Shown here in pieces: positions 3,178-11,600 of a DNA stretch of 11,644 bases (positions within the stretch are counted from its first letter, which is position 1; every line of letters begins with the position of its first letter). The position numbers and the translations under genes were made by a program. The stretch is taken from the NCBI GenBank assembly GCA_965233585.1, contig CBDDTI010000187.1, forward strand, positions 1-11,644, written 5' to 3'. Below the pieces are notes generated by a model. The model was not told the DNA's origin. It saw nothing but the letters and a program-made list of their open reading frames with translations, and made no database searches. The DNA comes from a bacterium (GTDB taxonomy: Bacteria; SAR324; NAC60-12).

Positions 3178-3460
3178 GTAAGGCATATATGACTTCTGAT
3201 TCTATCAGTTACTGAACTGAGTGAATGGCAATTTTATTCAGTTGTGCAGACCTGGCAATTGTTCCAATCAAGTGATGGCCTCACTTGTTTTCTCACATTT
3301 ATACCTTAAGTTGGAAATTTAACATCATTGCCTAATTTCATACCACATGGGAGACTGGCGCTACCAGATTTTTTTGTTTTTTTCCGAATTTAGTATGGAG
3401 GAAAACTGTACAACAAGTTAACGATCATCAATGGTCTTGTGCTAATAAATACTCCAAAAA

Positions 3461-3631
3461 CATACATACATACATACATACATACATACATACATACATA
3501 CATACATACATACATACATACATACATACATACATACATACATACATACATACATACATACATACATACATACATACATACATACATACATACATACATA
3601 CATACATACATACATACATGCATACATACAT
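3461..3631. repeat. (CATA)n / (TATG)n tetranucleotide microsatellite, about 42 units
   Basis: Directly visible; one interruption (CATG at 3617-3620). Confidence 0.99.
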
Positions 3632-4690
3632 TAAGTCCTAAACTGTTTGAGTTTGTGTTTGAGTTTGTGTTTAAACATAGATAGGGTGTGAGCCTTCCTA
3701 GTAGCCTCCGGTAATTTGTTCCATGTATTAGGGGCCACATGACGAAAAGAGTGAAGACCAAATCTTGTTGTTCTAACAGCTGATGGTTTCAGTTTGGCAT
3801 AACCTCTCAGATCATAGAAACCAGCAACACGCGCCTGTAGATAAGTTCATAAGTACGACGGTGCAGCACCCTGCAAGCATTTATACACAGTAACTAACAT
3901 ATTCTGTATTCTCCTTTGTTCCAATGTGACCGTATGTAGTTTGCGTAGTAACTATTCATAGGTACTAGACTGATCGTCTAAAACTTGTCGGAGTGCCTGC
4001 TTATTAAGCTGTTCGAGCTTATCTTTACTATGTGCGCTGCAGTGGTGCCACATATCGCTACAATATTGGAACGCCGGTTGTATGAAAGCGTTATATAGTC
4101 TTTGCCTCGTCTTCCTACTTACTAGCCGCTTGATGACTTGGAGCTGCTTATTCACTTTACTACAGACAACCGAGACATGCTTATCCAAAGTAAGTTTAGA
4201 GTCAATATTTACACTTAACAGATCAATATCATCGCTTTTCTTAATATGTGTTCCATTAACTACAAACGAAAAGTCTTGATCTGTACTACCAAGAGTGATC
4301 GATTGAAATTTTTCAGGCCATAAGTCCATTATGTTTAAACCAATCCACTGCAATACAAAGTTCGTCAATCAACTTATTATAAAGAGCTACATGATCACTA
4401 TCTGAACTGTAAAGTTGCTGATCATCAGCATAGGCATTAAGCTTAACTCTAGTTATAAAATATGACAGATCGTTAAGAAATACATTAAATAATAGAGGTC
4501 CAAGGACACTTCCTTGTGGTACACCTCTCCGATTGAAATCCCACGAAGACACTGCATCGCCAACTTTGACCCGTTGAAGCCTGCCCTGTAGGTAATTCTG
4601 CAGCAGCAAACAGCTCTGTTCATCCACACCATATGCCTGCAACTTCCTAACTAGTAACGAGTGGGGGAGGCTGTCAAAAGCCTTCAGAGA
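3631..4690 (-). mobile_element. 5'-truncated CR1-group (L2/Crack/CR1-like) LINE; decayed RT and ORF2 C-terminus
   Basis: The minus strand reads KAFDSLPH...GVPQGSVLGPLLFNVFLNDL...YADD (4421-4432)...WFKHNGLM, a frameshift at about 4316, then PEKFQ...IDSKLTLDKHV...YCSDMWHHC. After in-frame stops (3952-3954, 3847-3849) it continues RTTRFGLHSFRHVAPNTWNKLP...LSMFKHKL to a final TAA at 3631-3633. The 3' UTR may extend through the microsatellite to about 3368. Confidence 0.9.
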
Positions 4691-4945
4691 GAAATACATA
4701 TGTAACTGTGCCGGGAGGGCTAATGGAAGAAATAACTTTAAGAAGCAAGTCATTTGCTGAAAGTGTTGGATATCTGGGAAAAGGAGAGATTTGGAGGATT
4801 TGTCAACTATTAAATTTACAGTTAGCCAGCAGCCTTCCACTCCCAAGCAAGAACGTTTGCATTGTGCTGCAGTACTCTGTGCAAATTCCTGGCAAACAGC
4901 TGAAAAAGGGCCAAAACTGGTTTTCGACAAAACATTGACCCTGCC

Positions 4946-5076
4946 TGTAAGAACAAACATCCAAAGATGGCTGACAACTTCAAGTGTGTTTATTCCATGT
5001 GCTTAGTCAACTGACATGCATCATGACTGACTAGGGAGTGGAAAGTAAACTTGTCACATTTTATACATGTTTCACA
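4946..5076 (-). repeat. Probable 3' LTR (131 bp, TGT...ACA) of the Gypsy element, preceded by a polypurine tract at 5077-5088
   Basis: Minus strand: AGAAGGGTAGGA|TGTGAAAC...GGAATAAACAC...TTCTTACA, i.e. PPT, TG start, AATAAA and CA end, downstream of the integrase remnant. The partner LTR is not in the window, so this is unconfirmed. Confidence 0.6.
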
Positions 5077-6605
5077 TCCTACCCTTCTGGAAAAGAAGCA
5101 CAATTTGAACCTAAATAAATGTCACTGTCTTTGGTTAAAAAAAAGTCAGTTCCAATCTTCTGCCAAGGAAGCAATGGTGGTACAGAGGGCTTCAGTGGCT
5201 CAGAGGGTTGCCACTTGGCATAGTCTGCACACACACTACAATTGGTGACCATTTGCTCAATTTCCACTGACATGACAGGCCAAAATAATACCTCTCTGGC
5301 TCTTTGTCTGCATTTGACTATTCCTAAATGACTGTTGTCGATCTGACGGAGCATTTCAGGCCTAAGAGACTTTAAGAAAATTAGGGTTGTTCGTTTGAAA
5401 AGGAGCCCATCCGCTGTGGCAACTTCATCTCAAAATTTCCAGTACAGTCTTGCCTCTACAGGAACTTGTACTTTTGTGTCTGGCCATCCATTTTTCACTA
5501 CTGAGAGAACTGCTTGCAGCTCAGGATCTATCTTTGTTTCCTTCTGGAATTCTTCATAGCGTTCATCTGAGACTGACAGGACTAGATTAATCGCATTGAA
5601 TTCTTTGTCAGCTCCACTGCCATCATTGTGCACAGGTGCTTCGCTTAAGGTGTCTATACCAGGACTTAATTGCTTGCTTCCAGGAATGTAGCATATCTTG
5701 ACATCAGACCCACATACATTGATAATCATTTTCTGAAGTCTCAGTGGTAATTATGATAAAGGCTTGGTACTGATGGCTTGGAGAGGCTTATGATCTGTCT
5801 TCATCATGACACTTCTGCCATAGATGTCCGGATGAAACTTGCGACTAGCGAAAACAACTGCTAAGCATTTCGGTTTCAATTGGGGCATTAACCTTGTTTC
5901 AATGTCAGTAAGCACTTGCAAGGCGTAACACATGGGTTTGTTGTCTTGTTACAGCACTGCTCCCAGCCCCTTTCCACTGGCATCACATTGAATAGTTACT
6001 GGCTTATTCACATTGTAGTATTGAAGTACTGGAGCTTGTGACACAAGCTGCTAAATCTTCCTGAAGCTCTCCATCTGTGGATATAGTCCCAGTGGAACAA
6101 TTAATAAATCTGATTTCTCTAGCTCTAGCAACTACAGTGGACAGTCTAGGCAGATACGTGCTCAGAAACTGTACCAAGCTAAGGAGCCATTTCACATCTT
6201 CCTTTGTCTTTGGTTCTGGCATCTCATGAATGGCTTTAAGCTTCTGGGGATCAGTCTACAGGCCCTCTGTGCATGGTGAGCAGATGTCCTATGTAAGGCA
6301 CTTTCCTCTGGCAGATTTTGCATTGCTCTTTGTCTAGTTTTAAGCCCTTTTTTGATGCTCTTTCCAGAAATTTCTTCAATTATTCATCTTGTGTTGCTTC
6401 ATCTCCTGCAACGATTAGATCATCCATTATGACCTTAACACCATGCAGGTCTTGAACCATATGGTCCTTGGCTTTTTGCATGGAAGATTTCTGGGGCACA
6501 TTTGTGAACCTGTAACAACCAATTGGAGTTTTGAAGGTGCATAGAAGCGAGGACTCTTCATCTAACTTTAGCTGCCAGAAGCAGCTTTTGGCATCGAGAC
6601 AGTAA
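4946..6605 (-). mobile_element. Degenerate Ty3/Gypsy LTR retrotransposon: RT - RNase H - integrase N-terminus, heavily frameshifted
   Basis: LDAKSCFWQLKLDEESSLLCTFKTP (about 6520-6598); VIMDDLIV (IMDD at 6419-6430); MPEPKTKEDVKWLL; IQCDASGKGLGAVL and TDHKPL (RNase H); SHLGIVKCRQRAREVLFWPVM...CSVC (integrase Zn finger); PWQKIGTDFF. The RT-RH-INT order is Gypsy-type. Confidence 0.92.
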
Positions 6606-7041
6606 GACGTGCCGTTCCGCGCTCTGCTCGAAAAGTATCTAAAATGGCCTCAAAGTTTTTAGTATGAGTATTCTGCGCTCAGGAAAGAAGTTTAAAGTTC
6701 AGTCTACTATGTTGGCGGAAAATGTTGTGGAGCTGAGTCGTCTGGTGAAAAGTCTTGCAGAAAAAATCGATAAGTTAGAAGCTTCGAGCCAAAGTCACCA
6801 TGATACTATCTTAACGAAGCTGGCAAAGCTTGAAACTGCAACGAGTGAATTATCCGCAGGTTTAGAAGGAATGAATGAAGAAATGGAAGCAGTAAAACAA
6901 ACCTTGCAGAAGAAAAATGGTGAAACAGAGAATTAACTCTGAAGTGTAAATTAAGTGCTATTTGAACCCATGAATAACCCACTGGGCGTTAGCCCTAGTA
7001 AAGGGAATCAGGAAACCACAAGAGGTAAAGAAAAAATCTTT

Positions 7042-7115
7042 TGACCTCGGTGGGAATCGAACCCACGACCTCCGGATTAGATCTACCGTTACTCTGCCGA
7101 CTGAGCTACGAGGTC
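7042..7115 (-). tRNA. tRNA-like gene (repeat-borne, non-canonical anticodon arm; probably pseudo/derived), copy 1
   Basis: Reverse complement of 7423-7496; followed on the minus strand by AAAGATTTTTT. Confidence 0.75.
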
Positions 7116-7422
7116 GGACAGAGAAAGTCGGGGACGATTTAGGTGGTGAATCGCGGCGAAGAGAAAGTAAGGGTACATATGAATGTTTTGCCGCGTAGCA
7201 CTATGAACACAAATGGTGAAACAGAGAATTAACTCTGAAGTGTAAATTTAAGTGCTATTTGAACCCATGAATAACCCACTGGGCGTTAGCCCTAGTAAAG
7301 GGAATCAGGGAACCACACGAGGTAAAGAAAAAATCTTTTGACCTCGGTGGGAATCGTGTGGTTCCCTGATTCCCTTCTTCGCCGCGATTCACCACCTAAA
7401 TCGTCCCCGACTTTCTCTGTCC

Positions 7423-7496
7423 GACCTCGTAGCTCAGTCGGCAGAGTAACGGTAGATCTAATCCGGAGGTCGTGGGTTCGATTCCCACCGAGGTCA
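7423..7496 (+). tRNA. tRNA-like gene (74 nt), copy 2; possibly Arg(TCT)-derived, anticodon not reliably assignable
   Basis: Acceptor GACCTCG/CGAGGTC plus A; D arm GCTC-AGTCGGCA-GAGT; T arm GTGGG-TTCGATT-CCCAC; A box TAGCTCAGTCGG and B box GGTTCGATTCC intact. The anticodon arm ACGGT-AGATCTAA-TCCGG has mismatches and no U33. Confidence 0.75.
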
Positions 7497-7501
7497 AAAG
7501 A

Positions 7502-7507
7502 TTTTTT
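7502..7507 (+). terminator. Pol III terminator (T6) 5 nt downstream of the tRNA-like gene
   Basis: GAGGTCA-AAAGA-TTTTTT; the same run is present for the minus-strand copy (A6 at about 7031-7036). Confidence 0.65.
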
Positions 7508-8606
7508 CTTTACCTCGTGTGGTTCCCTGATTCCCTTTACTAGGGCTAACGCCCAGTGGGTTATTCATGGTTTCAACTAGCACTTAAATTTACACTTCAG
7601 AGCTCTTGCAGAAGAAAGCTGATATAGTACAAGTGGAACTACTTGAGAAGAAATTAGAAGAAATGGAGAATCATTCTAAGAGAAATAATATTGTTATTTG
7701 GAATATTCCAGAAGGTGCCGAAAAAGACTCGTCATGCTTAGCGCTTGTAACTTCGATCTTGACGGCACATATGGGCCTAGAGGAGATAGAAGTAATGCGG
7801 GCCCACCGCACAAATATCAAACAAAGGCAAAGTCCTACAAGTGGTGCAACTCTACCTAGGCCAGTTCACGTATATTTACTAAGATATACCGCCAAGGAAT
7901 ACATCTTGCGTAATGCGGCCTCTAAGTTAAGAGAGAATCCATTCCATGAAGCAAAGCTATACATTTCAGATGACGTATCAAAATCTGTGAGGGAGCAGCG
8001 CAAAAAGCTTAAAGAGAGGCACCTGAATGAAATCCGTAGTCGAGAAGGGGTCCAATTCGCTTATATTCCTTGGAGCGTTCCAGCCAGGATCATTTTTAAA
8101 TTGAATGGTGAGTCAAAACTTAAGTCCTTCTACCTGCAAGCTGAAAATGCCAACGCCAGCTAAACCGACTACTGGACTTGATTGCGTATTGCTATACTAT
8201 CAAATATACTATCTTTGTTCCAGAACTGTCTGCGATATTTTAAAATGAATTATATAGCTCTTCATTTAATTTCATGAATTCGAAGCCCGCTCTTTGTTAA
8301 TCTTTTTTTTTAAAAAAAAAAATGATAAAACACATTTATAGGAAGCCATAATCACTGTCAATCACATTATTAAGTCAATATTTATCGGTTTGGAGCGAGT
8401 GCGGCTGAAGGGGAGAAAAAGGATGCTAAACTCCTTCAGGAGGGAAGATGAAAATTTGAAATTTGATATGATTTTCCAAGCTAAATTATTTACTACGTGT
8501 TTATATTTTTGTGTCAGTGTTTTCGTTTCTTTGTGTAGGGCGATGCAAATAATTATTCAAAGGCGTGTTATAAGGCAAATGGTCTTCCAGGTTTTTTCCG
8601 TACCAA

Positions 8607-11600
8607 ATGAGAAAAATTATAGCAGAAATGAGTGATTTTAGAATGCTTTCATTAAATGTTAGAGGCTTGAGCAATTTTAAGAAACGTCGCGCAATTTTTG
8701 TATGGTGCAGAAAACAAAATGCAAATATTATTTTTCTTCAAGAAACGCATTCAACTGGAAACAATGAGAAACAATGGAAAGCTGAATGGGGTGCCCCTTT
8801 GGAGCTTGCTCATGGGAATAGTAATTCAAGAGGTGTTGCAATACTTTTTCGAAAGGGCTTTGATTGCAAGACAATTAAAAAAGTCATTTATCCCAATGAA
8901 AGATATATTAGTTTTGAAGTTCAAATCAATGATGAAAACTATTTTTTAGTGAATGTTTACGGTCCAAACAATGATAATCAAGCTGTGCAATTCTATGATC
9001 ATTTAATTGACGTTTTAAGGAAAGAAGGTCTTGCTTATGAAGATAAAATAATAATAGGTGGTGACTTCAATTGTCTCATTAATCCGCTACTGGACAAAAA
9101 AGGTGGGATACTGGTATTAAGGAAAAAAGTTGTTGATCGCATTGAAGAAATACAAACAACATTTAATTTGCATGATGTATGGCGTGTTAAAAATCCCCAA
9201 GCAAAAAGCTTTACATGGTCCCAAAAATCTCCATTTATTTTTTGTAGATTAGATTATTGGCTCATCTCAAATTCACTTCAGGACTTGAGTAAAGATGTCA
9301 ACATCATTGCAGCAGTAGGGTCTGATCACTCAGCAATTTTCTTACATCTACAGGAAATCGAGGAATGTCAGCGAGGCTCGGGGTTTTGGAAAATGAATAC
9401 TTCCTTATTGACTGATGAAAATTTTGTTCAAAAGATGAAAGAAAAGCTAGACCAATGGAAAAAAGAGGGAGAGGAATTTTCAGATGTAAGAGTTGCTTGG
9501 GATTGGATTAAATATAATGTACGACTCTTTACGATACATTACTCAAAAGAAGTAAAAGGGAGAGAGAAGAAAAGCTGCAAAGAAAATTGCAAATTGCTCA
9601 AGCACAGTTCCAGCAGACCCCCTGTGAGGAGATTGAAAAAATTCTTGATGAATGCAAAGCGGACTTGGAAAATTTTTGTGAAGAAAAGGCTAATGAATTA
9701 ATTGTACGTGCCAGGGCGAGGTGGAATGAATATGGCGAAAAGAGTACAAAATATTTTTTGCGTTTAGAAAAGAGAAATTACACCAGGAAACACATAAGAA
9801 AGCTCTGTTTAAGTGGAGTCATCACTAAAAACTATAAAAAAATATTGGATTCCGCTTCGGAGTATTACAAGAATCTATATAGTAGCAAATTGAAGGTAGA
9901 CCAATCTGACTCATTACATCAATTTCTTGGAAATTCGAATATTCCACGACTATCGCAAGAGGAAAGATTAAGCTGTGAGGGTCAAATAACCATAGAGGAA
10001 TGTATCAAAGCACTTGATACATTTGACACGGTGAAGACGCCTGGAAATGACGGAATTCCTGCTGAATTTTATAAAATTTTCTGGAATTCTGTTGGTGAAT
10101 TAATGACTGAAGTTTTTAATTATTCTTTTGAGCTAGGGCAAATGTCAAATTCTCAAAAGTAGGCGATCATCACCTTGATCGACAAAAAAGGAAGGGACAG
10201 GATGTTTTTGGAAAATTGGAGACCAATCTCGTTGATTAATGTCGACTCAAAAATCGCAACTAAGGTCATCGCAAATAGAATGAAAAATGTTCTTCCCTCT
10301 GTAATCCATGCAAATCAATCCGGTTTTATGAAGGGTAGGTTTATCGGAGAAACAGCTCGTTCAATCTTAGACATTATCGCTCATACTGAATCATTACACT
10401 TACCAGGTGTTTTACTGTTTATTGATTTTGAAAAAGCTTTTGACTCCATAGAACATGAGTTTCTTTATAAAGCATTAGAATGTTTTAATTTCGGACCCTC
10501 CTTCATAAAGTGGATTCAAACGTTTTACAATAACCTCTCAAATTGTGTTCTTAACAGTGGTTTTTTCTCTTCTCCTTTTCAACTAGAAAGGGGTGTTAGG
10601 CAGGGAGACCCTCTGTCGCCTTATTTATTTCTAATTGCCATTGAAATTATGGCGATATCAATAAGAACAAATGAGAATATTGAAGGCATAAAAATTGGGG
10701 AAGATGAATCTAAGTCTTTGTTGTATGCCAACGACATGACAGCTACTCTAGCAAATATTTCATCAGTCGAAAAAGTAATAAAAATCCTTAATGACTTTGA
10801 AAAATGTTCTGGCTTAAAAATGAACCTCTCTAAAACCAAAGCTATGTGGGTTGGAAAAAACAAAAATTCTTTAGAAACACCTCTGGGCCTTGAGTGGTGT
10901 ATAGGTGTTAAGACCCTAGGTATTCACTTCTCTTGTGATCAAGAACAAGTTATGAAACAAAATTTCCAGGATAAATTAAATGAAGTTCAAAAGATGATTA
11001 ACTTATGGAAACTCAGAGGTCTCTCCCTATTTGGCAAAGTAACAATAATAAAATCTTTCCTAATCCCAAAATTATTATATGTGTCTTCAATAATAGAAAC
11101 TCCACCCGAAATTATTAAACAGATGGAGAAAATGATCTACAGTGGATTGTCTTGGATTCCGCGTCTCTTAGATGAGAAGGAAGGGCCCTGGATTTCTTAT
11201 CTCAAATACAACGTAAAAAAATACGGAGGATGTTTTCTTTTTAGATGTAACTATGATGTAAATGATCTTGACCTAAGTCTTAGTAAGTTTTACTTACAGC
11301 TTCTTAGATAGATTATGGTGGGCGGATTTTAGATGCTCCTTTTCCGATGTGAATTATTCTCAAAATGTAATTTGGAATAATAAGGATATACGAATAAATA
11401 ATAAACCCGTTTTTTATAAAACATACTTTGACAAGGGCATAACTTATTTAAATGATTTACAGTTCGATGTTGACAACGTGCGTTCTTATGAATCCTTTAA
11501 GCAAAAAGGACTTAACACTAATTTTCTGACTTGGACAGCCTTGAGATCTTCTATTATTAATATGAAATCAAAAAGCTCCTACTCCATCCCCACAGCGGGT

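Follow-up and report, generated by a model that had tools for sequence, protein, structure and literature searches.

The closest known relatives of the element that we describe here are the non-LTR retrozymes of metazoans and the Sm-alpha elements of schistosomes. The former have been proposed to be non-autonomous passengers of the Penelope-like elements, or PLEs (PMC7229834; bioRxiv 10.64898/2026.07.22.740005); the latter, which make up 2,342 of the 2,368 tRNA-Gln-TTG predictions, depend for their propagation on multimeric transcripts (PMC2770079; PMC6765202). The insertions of the PLEs themselves are characterized by 5' truncation, by partial tandems and by an adjacent inverted copy that is also 5'-truncated (PMC8557442, section 6 and legend of Fig. 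2), and they bear a tail of 30-40 bp that is often found at one end only (PMC8557442). One PLE protein is reported to cleave and extend both DNA strands and to begin reverse transcription at two internal sites, the tail being the stretch between them (PMC11167929). Here, we analyze an insert in a degenerate LINE and suggest that it is a single copy of F1, a non-autonomous coral retroelement that is non-coding, abundant in its host genome and most likely mobilized by the PLE machinery; we put the probability of this reading at roughly three in four, because the layout fits the published PLE signature and recurs in a second family (F2), in other assemblies and in a canonical PLE.

The window, by which we mean the whole stretch of 11,644 nt that was analyzed (contig CBDDTI010000187.1 of assembly GCA_965233585.1), is coral DNA that has been binned with a bacterial genome. 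It contains an insert of 689 bp (6916-7604) lying between two perfect 13-bp target-site duplications, CTTGCAGAAGAAA (table 1). Removal of the insert and of one copy of the repeat leaves an ORF1 that is open from 6643 to a stop at 8161-8163, a frame of 272 codons from stop to stop and of 265 codons counted from the first ATG; the discrete insertion that the initial annotation had deduced from this restored frame is well founded. A LINE paralogue with an empty site, present on an 834-nt contig of run X15, has 6902 joined straight to 7605, and the left junction of the insert is spanned with 0 differences by contigs of runs X1 and X2. Downstream of ORF1, the broken frames of ORF2 retain the domains of an apurinic-type endonuclease and of a reverse transcriptase (Pfam).

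Table 1. Features of the insert and of its host LINE in the window (s, coordinate along the unit as read in the tRNA sense)
Feature	Position	Strand	Remarks
Host LINE ORF1, interrupted by the insert (6643-6915 to its left, 7618-8163 to its right)	6643..8163	+	Reading frames; X15 paralogue
Left target-site duplication, 13 bp	6903..6915	.	Identical to 7605-7617
Full 296-bp F1 unit, antisense	6916..7211	-	Sense 3' end (unit end, tailless) abuts the left duplication
T6 run shortly 3' of the tRNA-like module (minus-strand reading)	7031..7036	-	
tRNA-like module, called Arg-TCT	7042..7115	-	ARAGORN; Rfam tRNA 52.2 bits
Second tandem unit, 5'-truncated, 145 nt (sense positions 153-296)	7212..7356	-	97.9% identical to unit 1
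Sense patch at the inner junction, 20 nt (sense positions 192-211)	7357..7376	+	Read in the window contig
Inverted 5'-truncated sense arm, 227 nt (s50-275)	7376..7602	+	Ends 21 nt before the usual unit end
Sense-arm tRNA-like module, called Arg-TCT	7423..7496	+	ARAGORN; Rfam tRNA 52.2 bits
T6 run 3' of the sense-arm module	7502..7507	+	
CT, two bases matching neither unit nor duplication	7603..7604	.	
Right target-site duplication	7605..7617	.	Identical to the left copy
Host LINE ORF2 remnants, broken frames	8574..11308	+	Pfam Exo_endo_phos 2.4e-17, RVT_1 2.2e-36

The insert had been described as about one and a half head-to-tail units followed by an inverted copy, and this corresponds to 1.49 tandem antisense units, the second of which stops inside the T-arm of the tRNA, and then the 227-nt sense arm. 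The window insert has no A-tail or repeat tail, and its exact ends carry no terminal inverted repeat, both as annotated at the outset; its reading frames reach only 80-90 codons from stop to stop. The window copy is atypical of its family in having a tail at neither end.

In the 8.5 Mb of host contigs, the 296-bp F1 unit gave 116 HSPs on 44 contigs, which correspond to 46 loci. The dispersed copies that the initial annotation had anticipated are there, with 1 to about 7 tandem units per arm, variable inner breaks and duplications that vary in length from 10 to 16 bp. Among the 39 complete loci, 23 are composed of two arms in a head-to-head arrangement, the 3' end of each (in the tRNA sense) lying on the outside, and 16 are single-armed; the opposite arrangement was found in 0 of the 39. 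The partial-tandem and inverted layout, already likened to that of Penelope-like elements on the basis of the window, is a rule of the family and fits the published signature (PMC8557442; PMC11167929). The arms are 5'-truncated and their outer ends fall at two discrete sites, at sense positions 284-297 in 35 of the 62 ends and at 30-48 in 24 of the 62; these sites are 30-48 nt apart and the stretch between them constitutes the tail. Exactly one tailed end and one unit end were present in 21 of the 23 two-armed loci, and none of the 23 had two tails or two unit ends. Whereas the outer ends form two clusters, the inner ends are scattered across the whole unit, the arms are unequal and the inner junction is symmetric in a single two-armed locus (1/23). 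The element had initially been regarded as circularly permuted, and its inner ends do vary; its 3' ends, however, are fixed at two sites and only the 5' ends vary, so that the tRNA lies in the middle of the unit only in the phase that the earlier reader had chosen. A fixed 5' start at the tRNA head together with a tail, as a plain SINE would have, was not seen among the F1 loci: the 5' ends are variable, and the outer ends that were read abut the duplication with neither an A-run nor a microsatellite.

An exact flanking repeat of at least 10 bp was found at 20 of the 39 complete loci, two of these being repeats internal to the unit and not duplications, and such an exact duplication is missing from about half of the loci. 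The same search carried out at random places gave a repeat of at least 10 bp at 0 of 195 positions for F1 and at 1 of 260 for F2. The duplications of the two families are about 10-17 bp long with a mode of 13-15 bp; they are AT-rich and symmetric, the first base being G in 1 of 44 and the last base C in 0 of 44. They can enclose long arrays, for example an arm of 6.9 units inside a 16-bp duplication (locus C569) and an arm of more than 4 units inside a 14-bp duplication (C740), and they also flank single-armed copies (C409 and C25, 15 bp each). The identity of arms has a median of 0.970 within a locus versus 0.920 between loci.

Family F2, with a unit of 250 bp and a tRNA-like module unlike that of F1, displays the same organization. 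Of its 52 complete loci, 34 are head to head, one more is compound and 0 are reversed; exactly one tail, of 52-68 nt, is present in 29 of the 35 two-armed loci, inner junctions are symmetric in 5 of these 35, and duplications of at least 10 bp (mode 14) flank 24 of the 52. In other metagenome assemblies, where 51 of the 81 F1 loci fetched reach a contig end, there were 25 complete loci, 15 of them head to head and 0 reversed, with one tail in 13 of the 15 two-armed loci and duplications of at least 10 bp in 16 of the 25 (mode 13). PLE-like ORFs are common in the host contigs (45 GIY-YIG matches; 39 ORFs of at least 300 aa), and a canonical PLE in the same contigs has the same two-armed insertion anatomy as F1. 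Once its flanks had been read and the repeat search widened, its true end lying 56-59 nt past the query, exact flanking repeats of 11-17 bp were found in 7 of 13 two-armed loci (controls 5/130), and each of those 7 carries the 56-59-nt extension on one side only. The tails of F2 (52-68 nt) and the extension of the canonical PLE (56-59 nt) both exceed the published tail length of 30-40 bp (PMC8557442).

F1 thus possesses the PLE-type traits of 5' truncation with fixed 3' ends, partial tandems, an inverted copy and a tail at one end, and its duplications, like those of F2, have a modal size of 13-15 bp versus 11-17 bp in the canonical PLE of the same contigs. The footprint is that of a staggered break some 13-15 bp wide, each end of which bears an arm with its 3' end, in the tRNA sense, directed at the flanking DNA. 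Insertion could have proceeded as follows: both DNA 3' ends of the break would act as primers, and a multimeric (or circular) RNA of tRNA sense would be reverse-transcribed from them, with the cDNA beginning either at the unit end or 30-48 nt beyond it (the tail), so that a two-armed insert would receive one start of each kind. The two cDNAs would then be joined at variable points by template jumps, which may sometimes leave short patches such as that at 7357-7376.

The tRNA-like module appears to keep a full cloverleaf, with a T-run behind it. The modules score 52-61 bits against the Rfam tRNA model and have intact acceptor and T stems; the 7-bp acceptor stem and the T-arm are complete in F1, F2 and a third family, F3, with different base pairs in each. 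Immediately before the called anticodon, where functional tRNAs have U, F1 has A and F2 has C, and a joint fold of the module does not predict an anticodon stem. Sequences resembling the A- and B-boxes are presumably intact, as judged by eye against the consensus. A T-run follows the module in 27 of 31 copies of F1 (at least 4 T within 30 nt), 74 of 75 of F2 and 7 of 7 of F3; placed straight after the module, it should stop Pol III, and hence the module's own promoter could not make the template. In F1 and F2 about 54-59 nt separate the second start site from the module that follows it, a distance close to the 54 nt by which the start site (+118) of a studied PLE precedes the end of the minimal RNA (+172) (PMC11167929). 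A constant spacing between start site and module was not upheld, the single F3 locus giving 75 nt versus 54-59 nt in F1 and F2, and we retain it as a lead only. When the leader and junction were folded, no structure common to F1 and F2 emerged. We infer that the module may serve, in decreasing order of preference, as part of an RNA region to which the reverse transcriptase has to bind, as a processing signal for RNase P/RNase Z or as a Pol III unit that is simply carried along. It is conceivable, if rather doubtful, that F1-F3 are a ribozyme-free counterpart of the retrozymes, in which a tRNA mimic would direct the cutting of multimeric transcripts by RNase P/RNase Z near the start sites or would provide a docking handle for the PLE reverse transcriptase. 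RNase P is itself a ribozyme, and the PLE reverse transcriptase is related to telomerase. Were this idea true, a PLE passenger would have a tRNA shape among its working parts, a shape maintained by no fewer than three families whose stem sequences differ.

The partner PLE or LINE with shared terminal sequence that the initial annotation had proposed looking for did not emerge from the 8.5 Mb of host contigs, where blastn, nhmmer and local alignment found no autonomous PLE or LINE sharing sequence with F1 or F2; the test is a weak one, since these contigs are a small part of the host genome. A blastn comparison of the unit with the 1.2 kb to the left and right of 20 GIY-YIG ORFs yielded a single 13-mer, and no tRNA-like module stands in an element-like position next to any of the 39 PLE-like ORFs. 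In the whole genome, the nhmmer profiles of F1 and F2 picked up nothing beyond the tRNA-like region of the other family, further tRNA-like repeats and the tRNAs of bacteria. An 11-mer, situated in a GGGC-TAAC-GCCC hairpin, is common to F1 and to the hammerhead-like motif of one PLE family; it was rejected as a link, the local alignment being not significant (32 of 500 shuffles scored as high).

One rival explanation departs from ours only in what kind of template is copied and in what the tRNA does; the PLE machinery would still accomplish the integration. It supposes a unit-length circular RNA that is copied by rolling circle, with the module recruiting RNase P/RNase Z in place of a hammerhead. 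Multi-unit arms within single duplications (C569 and C740) and the close likeness of the units in one locus are what such a template would produce, and the units of F1-F3 (244-297 bp) fit the 170-400 nt of animal retrozymes (PMC7229834). Cutting at the tRNA would accord with the absence of a ribozyme: no hammerhead or other ribozyme was found by Rfam at E up to 10 in 6850-7680, nor at E up to 1 in the F1, F2 and F3 loci, the only matches in both searches being to tRNA and, weakly and miRNA-like, to the palindromic junctions. It would also accord with the maintenance of the acceptor stem and T-arm in three families with differing pairs, and hammerhead-less PLEs (Naiads) do exist (PMC8557442). 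However, 3-kb PLEs also normally form partial tandems, so circles are not required, and a PLE in vitro used unprocessed RNA, with no need of hammerhead cleavage (PMC11167929). Many arms, moreover, contain the whole module, which implies that their templates were uncut there. The products of RNase P/RNase Z have a 5'-phosphate and a 3'-OH and are not known to be a substrate of the RtcB ligase that is invoked for retrozymes. On balance we consider this variant unlikely.

Mobilization by a LINE, for example the surrounding L1/Tx1-type element, would make F1 an ordinary tRNA SINE whose inverted arms arose by twin priming or rearrangement. The tRNA-derived look of the module with its apparently intact A- and B-box-like sequences, the APE-type LINEs in the window and the size of the duplications (13-15 bp is also within the range of L1-type LINEs) are in its favor, but we judge it improbable: the outer ends that were read lack an A-tail or microsatellite tail, the 5' end is not fixed at the tRNA head, the presence of the same sequence in both arms is not a product of twin priming, the one-tail rule holds in 21/23, 29/35 and 13/15 two-armed loci, the 3' end is common to no LINE in the contigs and a true PLE of the same genome has the matching anatomy. 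Two-armed copies do resemble the long inverted repeats, made of subrepeats, of a foldback or MITE-type DNA transposon, yet their arms are unequal and their inner junctions variable (symmetric in only 1/23 for F1 and 5/35 for F2), the tail distinguishes the two outer ends, single-armed copies (C409 and C25) carry 15-bp duplications, and the length of the duplication is not fixed (10-17 bp), all of which makes a DNA-level origin very improbable. Finally, an assembly artefact, or else a tRNA gene array or satellite, might be suspected: the contig was binned from a metagenome, short-read assemblies are often broken or mis-joined at repeats, and 51 of the 81 fetched loci touch a contig end. Flanking duplications far above the controls, independent assemblies that obey the same rules, a left junction confirmed with 0 differences in two more runs together with the empty-site paralogue, and an A (F1) or C (F2) before the anticodon leave this scarcely credible.

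If F1 is a PLE passenger, as we favor, it has some practical value. How PLEs integrate is as yet understood only poorly, and assembling their 3-4-kb copies is difficult; passengers of 0.25-0.3 kb supply hundreds of insertions that are complete, bounded by duplications and readable over their entire footprint. This footprint, with its outward arms, two discrete starts and rule of one tail per insert, constitutes cheap data for models of two-strand target-primed reverse transcription. As read here, F1-F3 would also indicate that a hammerhead is dispensable for a PLE passenger. About 8.5 Mb of coral DNA are, in addition, flagged inside a genome that is recorded as that of a bacterium. In one coral species, long "tRNA" repeats amount to 23,498 copies and 5.2 Mb (PMC12005156), and families of the F1 type may, at a guess, account for them.

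The resemblance of F1 to the systems already described is partial in each case. Classical LINE-dependent tRNA SINEs are likewise short and non-coding, with Pol III box-like sequences and flanking duplications; they have, however, a fixed 5' tRNA head and a 3' tail that is LINE-derived or A-rich, whereas in F1 the 5' ends vary, the internal 3' ends are fixed at two sites, a tail of that kind is absent and the arms stand head to head. The Chlamys-type MRC1 of Chlamydomonas is, like F1 as interpreted here, a non-coding PLE passenger, with pseudo-LTRs and head-to-tail multicopy arrangements (PMC8557442, section 10); the non-autonomous Chlamys elements have 3' ends in common with autonomous families and no reported tRNA module (PMC8557442), whereas F1 carries such a module and showed similarity to no partner in the host contigs. 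The autonomous EN+ PLEs (Penelope/Poseidon, Neptune and Naiad) share with F1 the insertion anatomy and the two internal starts (PMC8557442; PMC11167929), but they are 3-4 kb long, and F1 is an ORF-less unit of about 0.3 kb that has no sequence in common with the PLEs in the contigs. Closer still are the schistosome Sm-alpha and Sj-alpha elements, which are short, high-copy and tandem and have a module that is called as a tRNA (PMC2770079; PMC6765202); a search confined to the published literature found no other tRNA-bearing PLE passenger. Sm-alpha possesses an active hammerhead and is reported to be transcribed by Pol III read-through, in contrast to F1-F3 with their lack of a hammerhead and their T-run after the module. 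The metazoan non-LTR retrozymes also consist of short non-coding units of 170-400 nt, both dispersed and tandem, are abundant in a coral (Acropora millepora was studied) and are flanked by duplications of more than 4 bp (PMC7229834; bioRxiv 10.64898/2026.07.22.740005). They are defined by a type I hammerhead, whereas F1-F3 bear, instead of the hammerhead, a tRNA-like cloverleaf followed by a T-run.

The frame split by the 689-bp insert (6916-7604) belongs to a decayed LINE, whose apurinic-type endonuclease and reverse transcriptase lie downstream of it. When the insert and one copy of CTTGCAGAAGAAA are removed, the frame is open from 6643 to a stop at 8161-8163 and counts 265 codons from its first ATG. 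The initial annotation had claimed a 13-bp target-site duplication whose removal with the insert restores a stop-free 265-aa ORF1, and both were reproduced; its description of the insert as about 1.5 head-to-tail units plus an inverted copy also holds, a full unit and 145 nt of a second being followed by a 227-nt sense arm. In an RNA-library contig of run X15, position 6902 is joined straight to 7605; this contig is a paralogous LINE copy without the insert. The left junction of the insert is spanned, with 0 differences, by contigs of runs X1 and X2.

Features of the insert and its flanking duplications (window coordinates)
Feature	Position	Orientation	Remark
Left target-site duplication copy, CTTGCAGAAGAAA	6903-6915		13-mer, same as right copy
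Full 296-bp F1 unit	6916-7211	antisense	
tRNA-like module, antisense arm	7042-7115	minus	ARAGORN Arg-TCT; Rfam tRNA 52.2 bits
Second F1 unit, 145 nt	7212-7356	antisense	in tandem with the first
Sense patch, 20 nt	7357-7376	sense	
Sense arm, 227 nt	7376-7602	sense	
tRNA-like module, sense arm	7423-7496	plus	ARAGORN Arg-TCT; Rfam tRNA 52.2 bits
CT at the close of the insert	7603-7604		two bases without match
Right target-site duplication copy, CTTGCAGAAGAAA	7605-7617		13-mer, same as left copy

Upstream of the LINE, LTR-type retroelement remnants occupy 3390-5750 on the minus strand (RVT_1, 4.5e-15; integrase zinc-binding domain, 3e-10). The inner palindromic junction (7300-7374) weakly matches miRNA-precursor models (mir-787 reaches 28 bits where its gathering score is 57), as is expected of any hairpin, and this is no evidence for a miRNA.

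The window makes up contig C187 in full, and the 12-Mb genome to which it is assigned (G000) is classed as prokaryotic. Its 15 contigs longer than 50 kb total 3.5 Mb and look like the bacterial part, and the remaining 8.5 Mb consist of short contigs rich in remnants of LINEs, LTR elements and Penelope-like elements (PLEs) and in tRNA-like repeats. The window stretch occurs in public runs whose labels read coral metagenome, coral reef metagenome or coded organisms; the summed word depth of the F1 unit in them is 10^5 to 10^6, and that of the LINE flanks in run X1 a few hundred. On these grounds we regard the window as host DNA from a coral inside a bacterial genome record; some 8.5 Mb of coral-like eukaryotic DNA sit in a 12-Mb genome recorded as a bacterium. 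Two clusters of apparently genuine host tRNA genes, each followed by a T-run, lie on contigs C4 (L044; 14 tRNA-Lys-CTT) and C418 (tRNA genes for Ser, Met and Ile).

The dispersal check proposed in the initial annotation, a BLASTN search with the unit, bore it out: there are 116 HSPs on 44 contigs of G000, forming 46 loci whose arms range in length between part of one unit and 6.9 units and whose duplications vary in length (16 bp around the locus on C569, 14 bp on C740). Positions (s) refer to the sense strand, defined by a forward-reading tRNA, the module of F1 being s97-170. Among 39 complete F1 loci, 23 are two-armed and head to head, with sense 3' ends toward the flanks, 16 have one arm, and none shows the opposite arrangement. 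Outer ends fall at s284-297 in 35 of 62 cases, at s30-48 of the next unit in 24 and elsewhere in three; inner ends are scattered across the unit. One tail of 30-48 nt is paired with one unit end at 21 of the 23 two-armed loci, and two tails or two unit ends occur at none of the 23; of the two loci that deviate, one is the window copy, with a unit end on the left and a right side stopping at s275. Exact flanking repeats of at least 10 bp enclose 20 of the 39 loci (mode 13-15 bp), against 0/195 for the same search at random places, although at C330 and C681, both among the 20, the repeat is where the following unit starts and no duplication. Median identity is 0.970 between arms within a locus versus 0.920 between loci, which fits a single event per locus.

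The same layout is found in a second and more abundant family of G000, F2, which has a 250-bp unit, a different tRNA-like module (ARAGORN Thr-GGT) and 76 loci (among them C182:2028-3494, L041). Its 52 complete loci include 34 head to head, one compound and none reversed; outer ends lie at the unit end in 40/87 and 52-68 nt beyond it in 37/87, exactly one tail is present at 29 of 35 two-armed loci, and duplications of at least 10 bp flank 24 of the 52 (mode 14; random places, 1/260). The third family, F3 (244-bp unit, 'Ala-GGC' module), has one complete locus (C380:7494-9400, L042), with seven tandem units, a short inverted arm, a 12-bp duplication, a 31-nt tail at one end and a rearranged right end. 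An exact F1 30-mer probe of other metagenome assemblies matched at least 120 stretches, and the 80 retrieved yielded 81 F1 loci: 51 touch a contig end, another five are short, and the 25 others are complete (L072 and L076 seem to be one locus present in two assemblies). Of these 25, 15 are head to head and none reversed; 13 of the 15 have one tail, and 16 of the 25 have duplications of at least 10 bp (mode 13). Given this replication, we reject an artefact of the assembly of the G000 bin.

These marks match those described for PLEs: pronounced 5' truncation, pseudo-LTRs made of partial tandems, an adjoining inverted 5'-truncated copy and a tail of 30-40 bp, often at one end only (PMC8557442). 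As a control we took one canonical PLE family from contigs of the same genome. Its 61 complete loci include 16 head to head and none reversed; 7 of 13 two-armed loci have exact flanking repeats of 11-17 bp (random controls, 5/130), and each of those seven carries an extension of 56-59 nt on a single side. As layout and duplication size agree, F1 and F2 share every readable insertion feature with a true PLE of G000. The 44 duplications are 70% AT against a background of 60%, with a symmetric base preference (first base G in one, last base C in none) that suggests the same nuclease cutting each strand. The control family also has many tiny palindromic copies made of two 100-nt arms. Head-to-tail arrays on C448 and C653, with a unit of about 3.7 kb and a 492-aa ORF only 24% identical to canonical PLE ORFs, may belong to a further clade of PLEs or to some other kind of element.

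Within the 8.5 Mb, searches by blastn, nhmmer and local alignment found no partner element that shares sequence with F1 or F2, a weak negative given how little of a coral genome these contigs represent. The control family (C562, C15, C85, C110 and others) carries a candidate hammerhead-like motif, GACGAA-GGGCTAACGCTC-GAAAC-GTC, about 30 nt before one alternative 3' end. The AGGGCTAACGC of F1 (s215-225; window 7541-7551, and 6987-6997 on the minus strand) forms part of a GGGC-TAAC-GCCC hairpin and matches helix II of this motif exactly, at 81 nt from a 3' end versus 86 nt in the PLE; as a sign of kinship it is not significant, 32 of 500 shuffles scoring as high.

A purified PLE protein cuts and extends both DNA strands, its reverse transcription begins at two internal RNA sites, the stretch between them being the genomic tail, and hammerhead cleavage is dispensable in vitro (PMC11167929). 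In the footprint seen here the 3' ends form a fixed pair and the 5' ends vary; the arms face outward and can hold several units, two-armed inserts carry one tail, and the duplications measure 13-15 bp. At a staggered break, both 3' ends would prime cDNA on a tRNA-sense RNA covering at least one unit junction, which could be a linear multimer or a circle. Of the two cDNAs, one would take the unit end as its start and the other the tail end, perhaps as the result of two protomers lying next to each other on one RNA, and template jumps would join the cDNAs at variable points, leaving patches such as 7357-7376.

The modules of F1, F2 and F3 keep the 7-bp acceptor stem and the T-arm with different base pairs, and score 52, 57.5 and 61 bits, respectively, against the Rfam tRNA model. 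Transfer RNAs carry U just before the anticodon; since A replaces it in F1 and C in F2, these two are probably not decoding tRNAs. A T-run of at least four follows within 30 nt in 27/31 copies of F1, 74/75 of F2 and 7/7 of F3, as it does at 15/15 apparently genuine tRNA-Lys genes, and the module therefore looks, from its sequence, like a self-contained Pol III unit. The start sites lie upstream of the module and would be absent from its own transcript, so that the template needs another source, for example read-through or transcription by Pol II. By eye, at F1 s163-190 (window 7489-7516) and at the equivalent place in F2 and F3, the 3' acceptor strand and trailer could pair with sequence just downstream, the T-run forming the loop; this would be either a second fold in place of the cloverleaf or a hairpin resembling a terminator. 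In F1 and F2 the second start site precedes the module by 54-59 nt, near the 54 nt from start site to minimal RNA end of PMC11167929; the one F3 locus gives 75 nt, and the spacing counts only as a lead.

An ordinary SINE is rejected, F1 having neither a fixed tRNA head nor a LINE-type tail, and so is a foldback element or MITE, the ends of F1 being unlike each other and its duplications variable in length. Rfam searches revealed no hammerhead or other ribozyme in 6850-7680 (E <= 10) or at the F1-F3 loci (E <= 1), and the families therefore lack the feature by which retrozymes are defined; Naiad PLEs, for their part, are described as having no canonical hammerheads (PMC8557442). PLE passengers as such are already known, and include, in these accounts, animal retrozymes (PMC7229834; bioRxiv 10.64898/2026.07.22.740005) and non-autonomous Chlamys elements (PMC8557442). 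Long 'tRNA' repeats already appear by the tens of thousands in a coral repeat table (PMC12005156). Our search, which covered the literature, brought up no PLE-style family described as having a tRNA-like module but no ribozyme. The schistosome elements Sm-alpha and Sj-alpha, also known PLE passengers, are described as having a tRNA-like module and a hammerhead together (PMC2770079, PMC6765202), whereas F1-F3 carry the tRNA-like module without a ribozyme.
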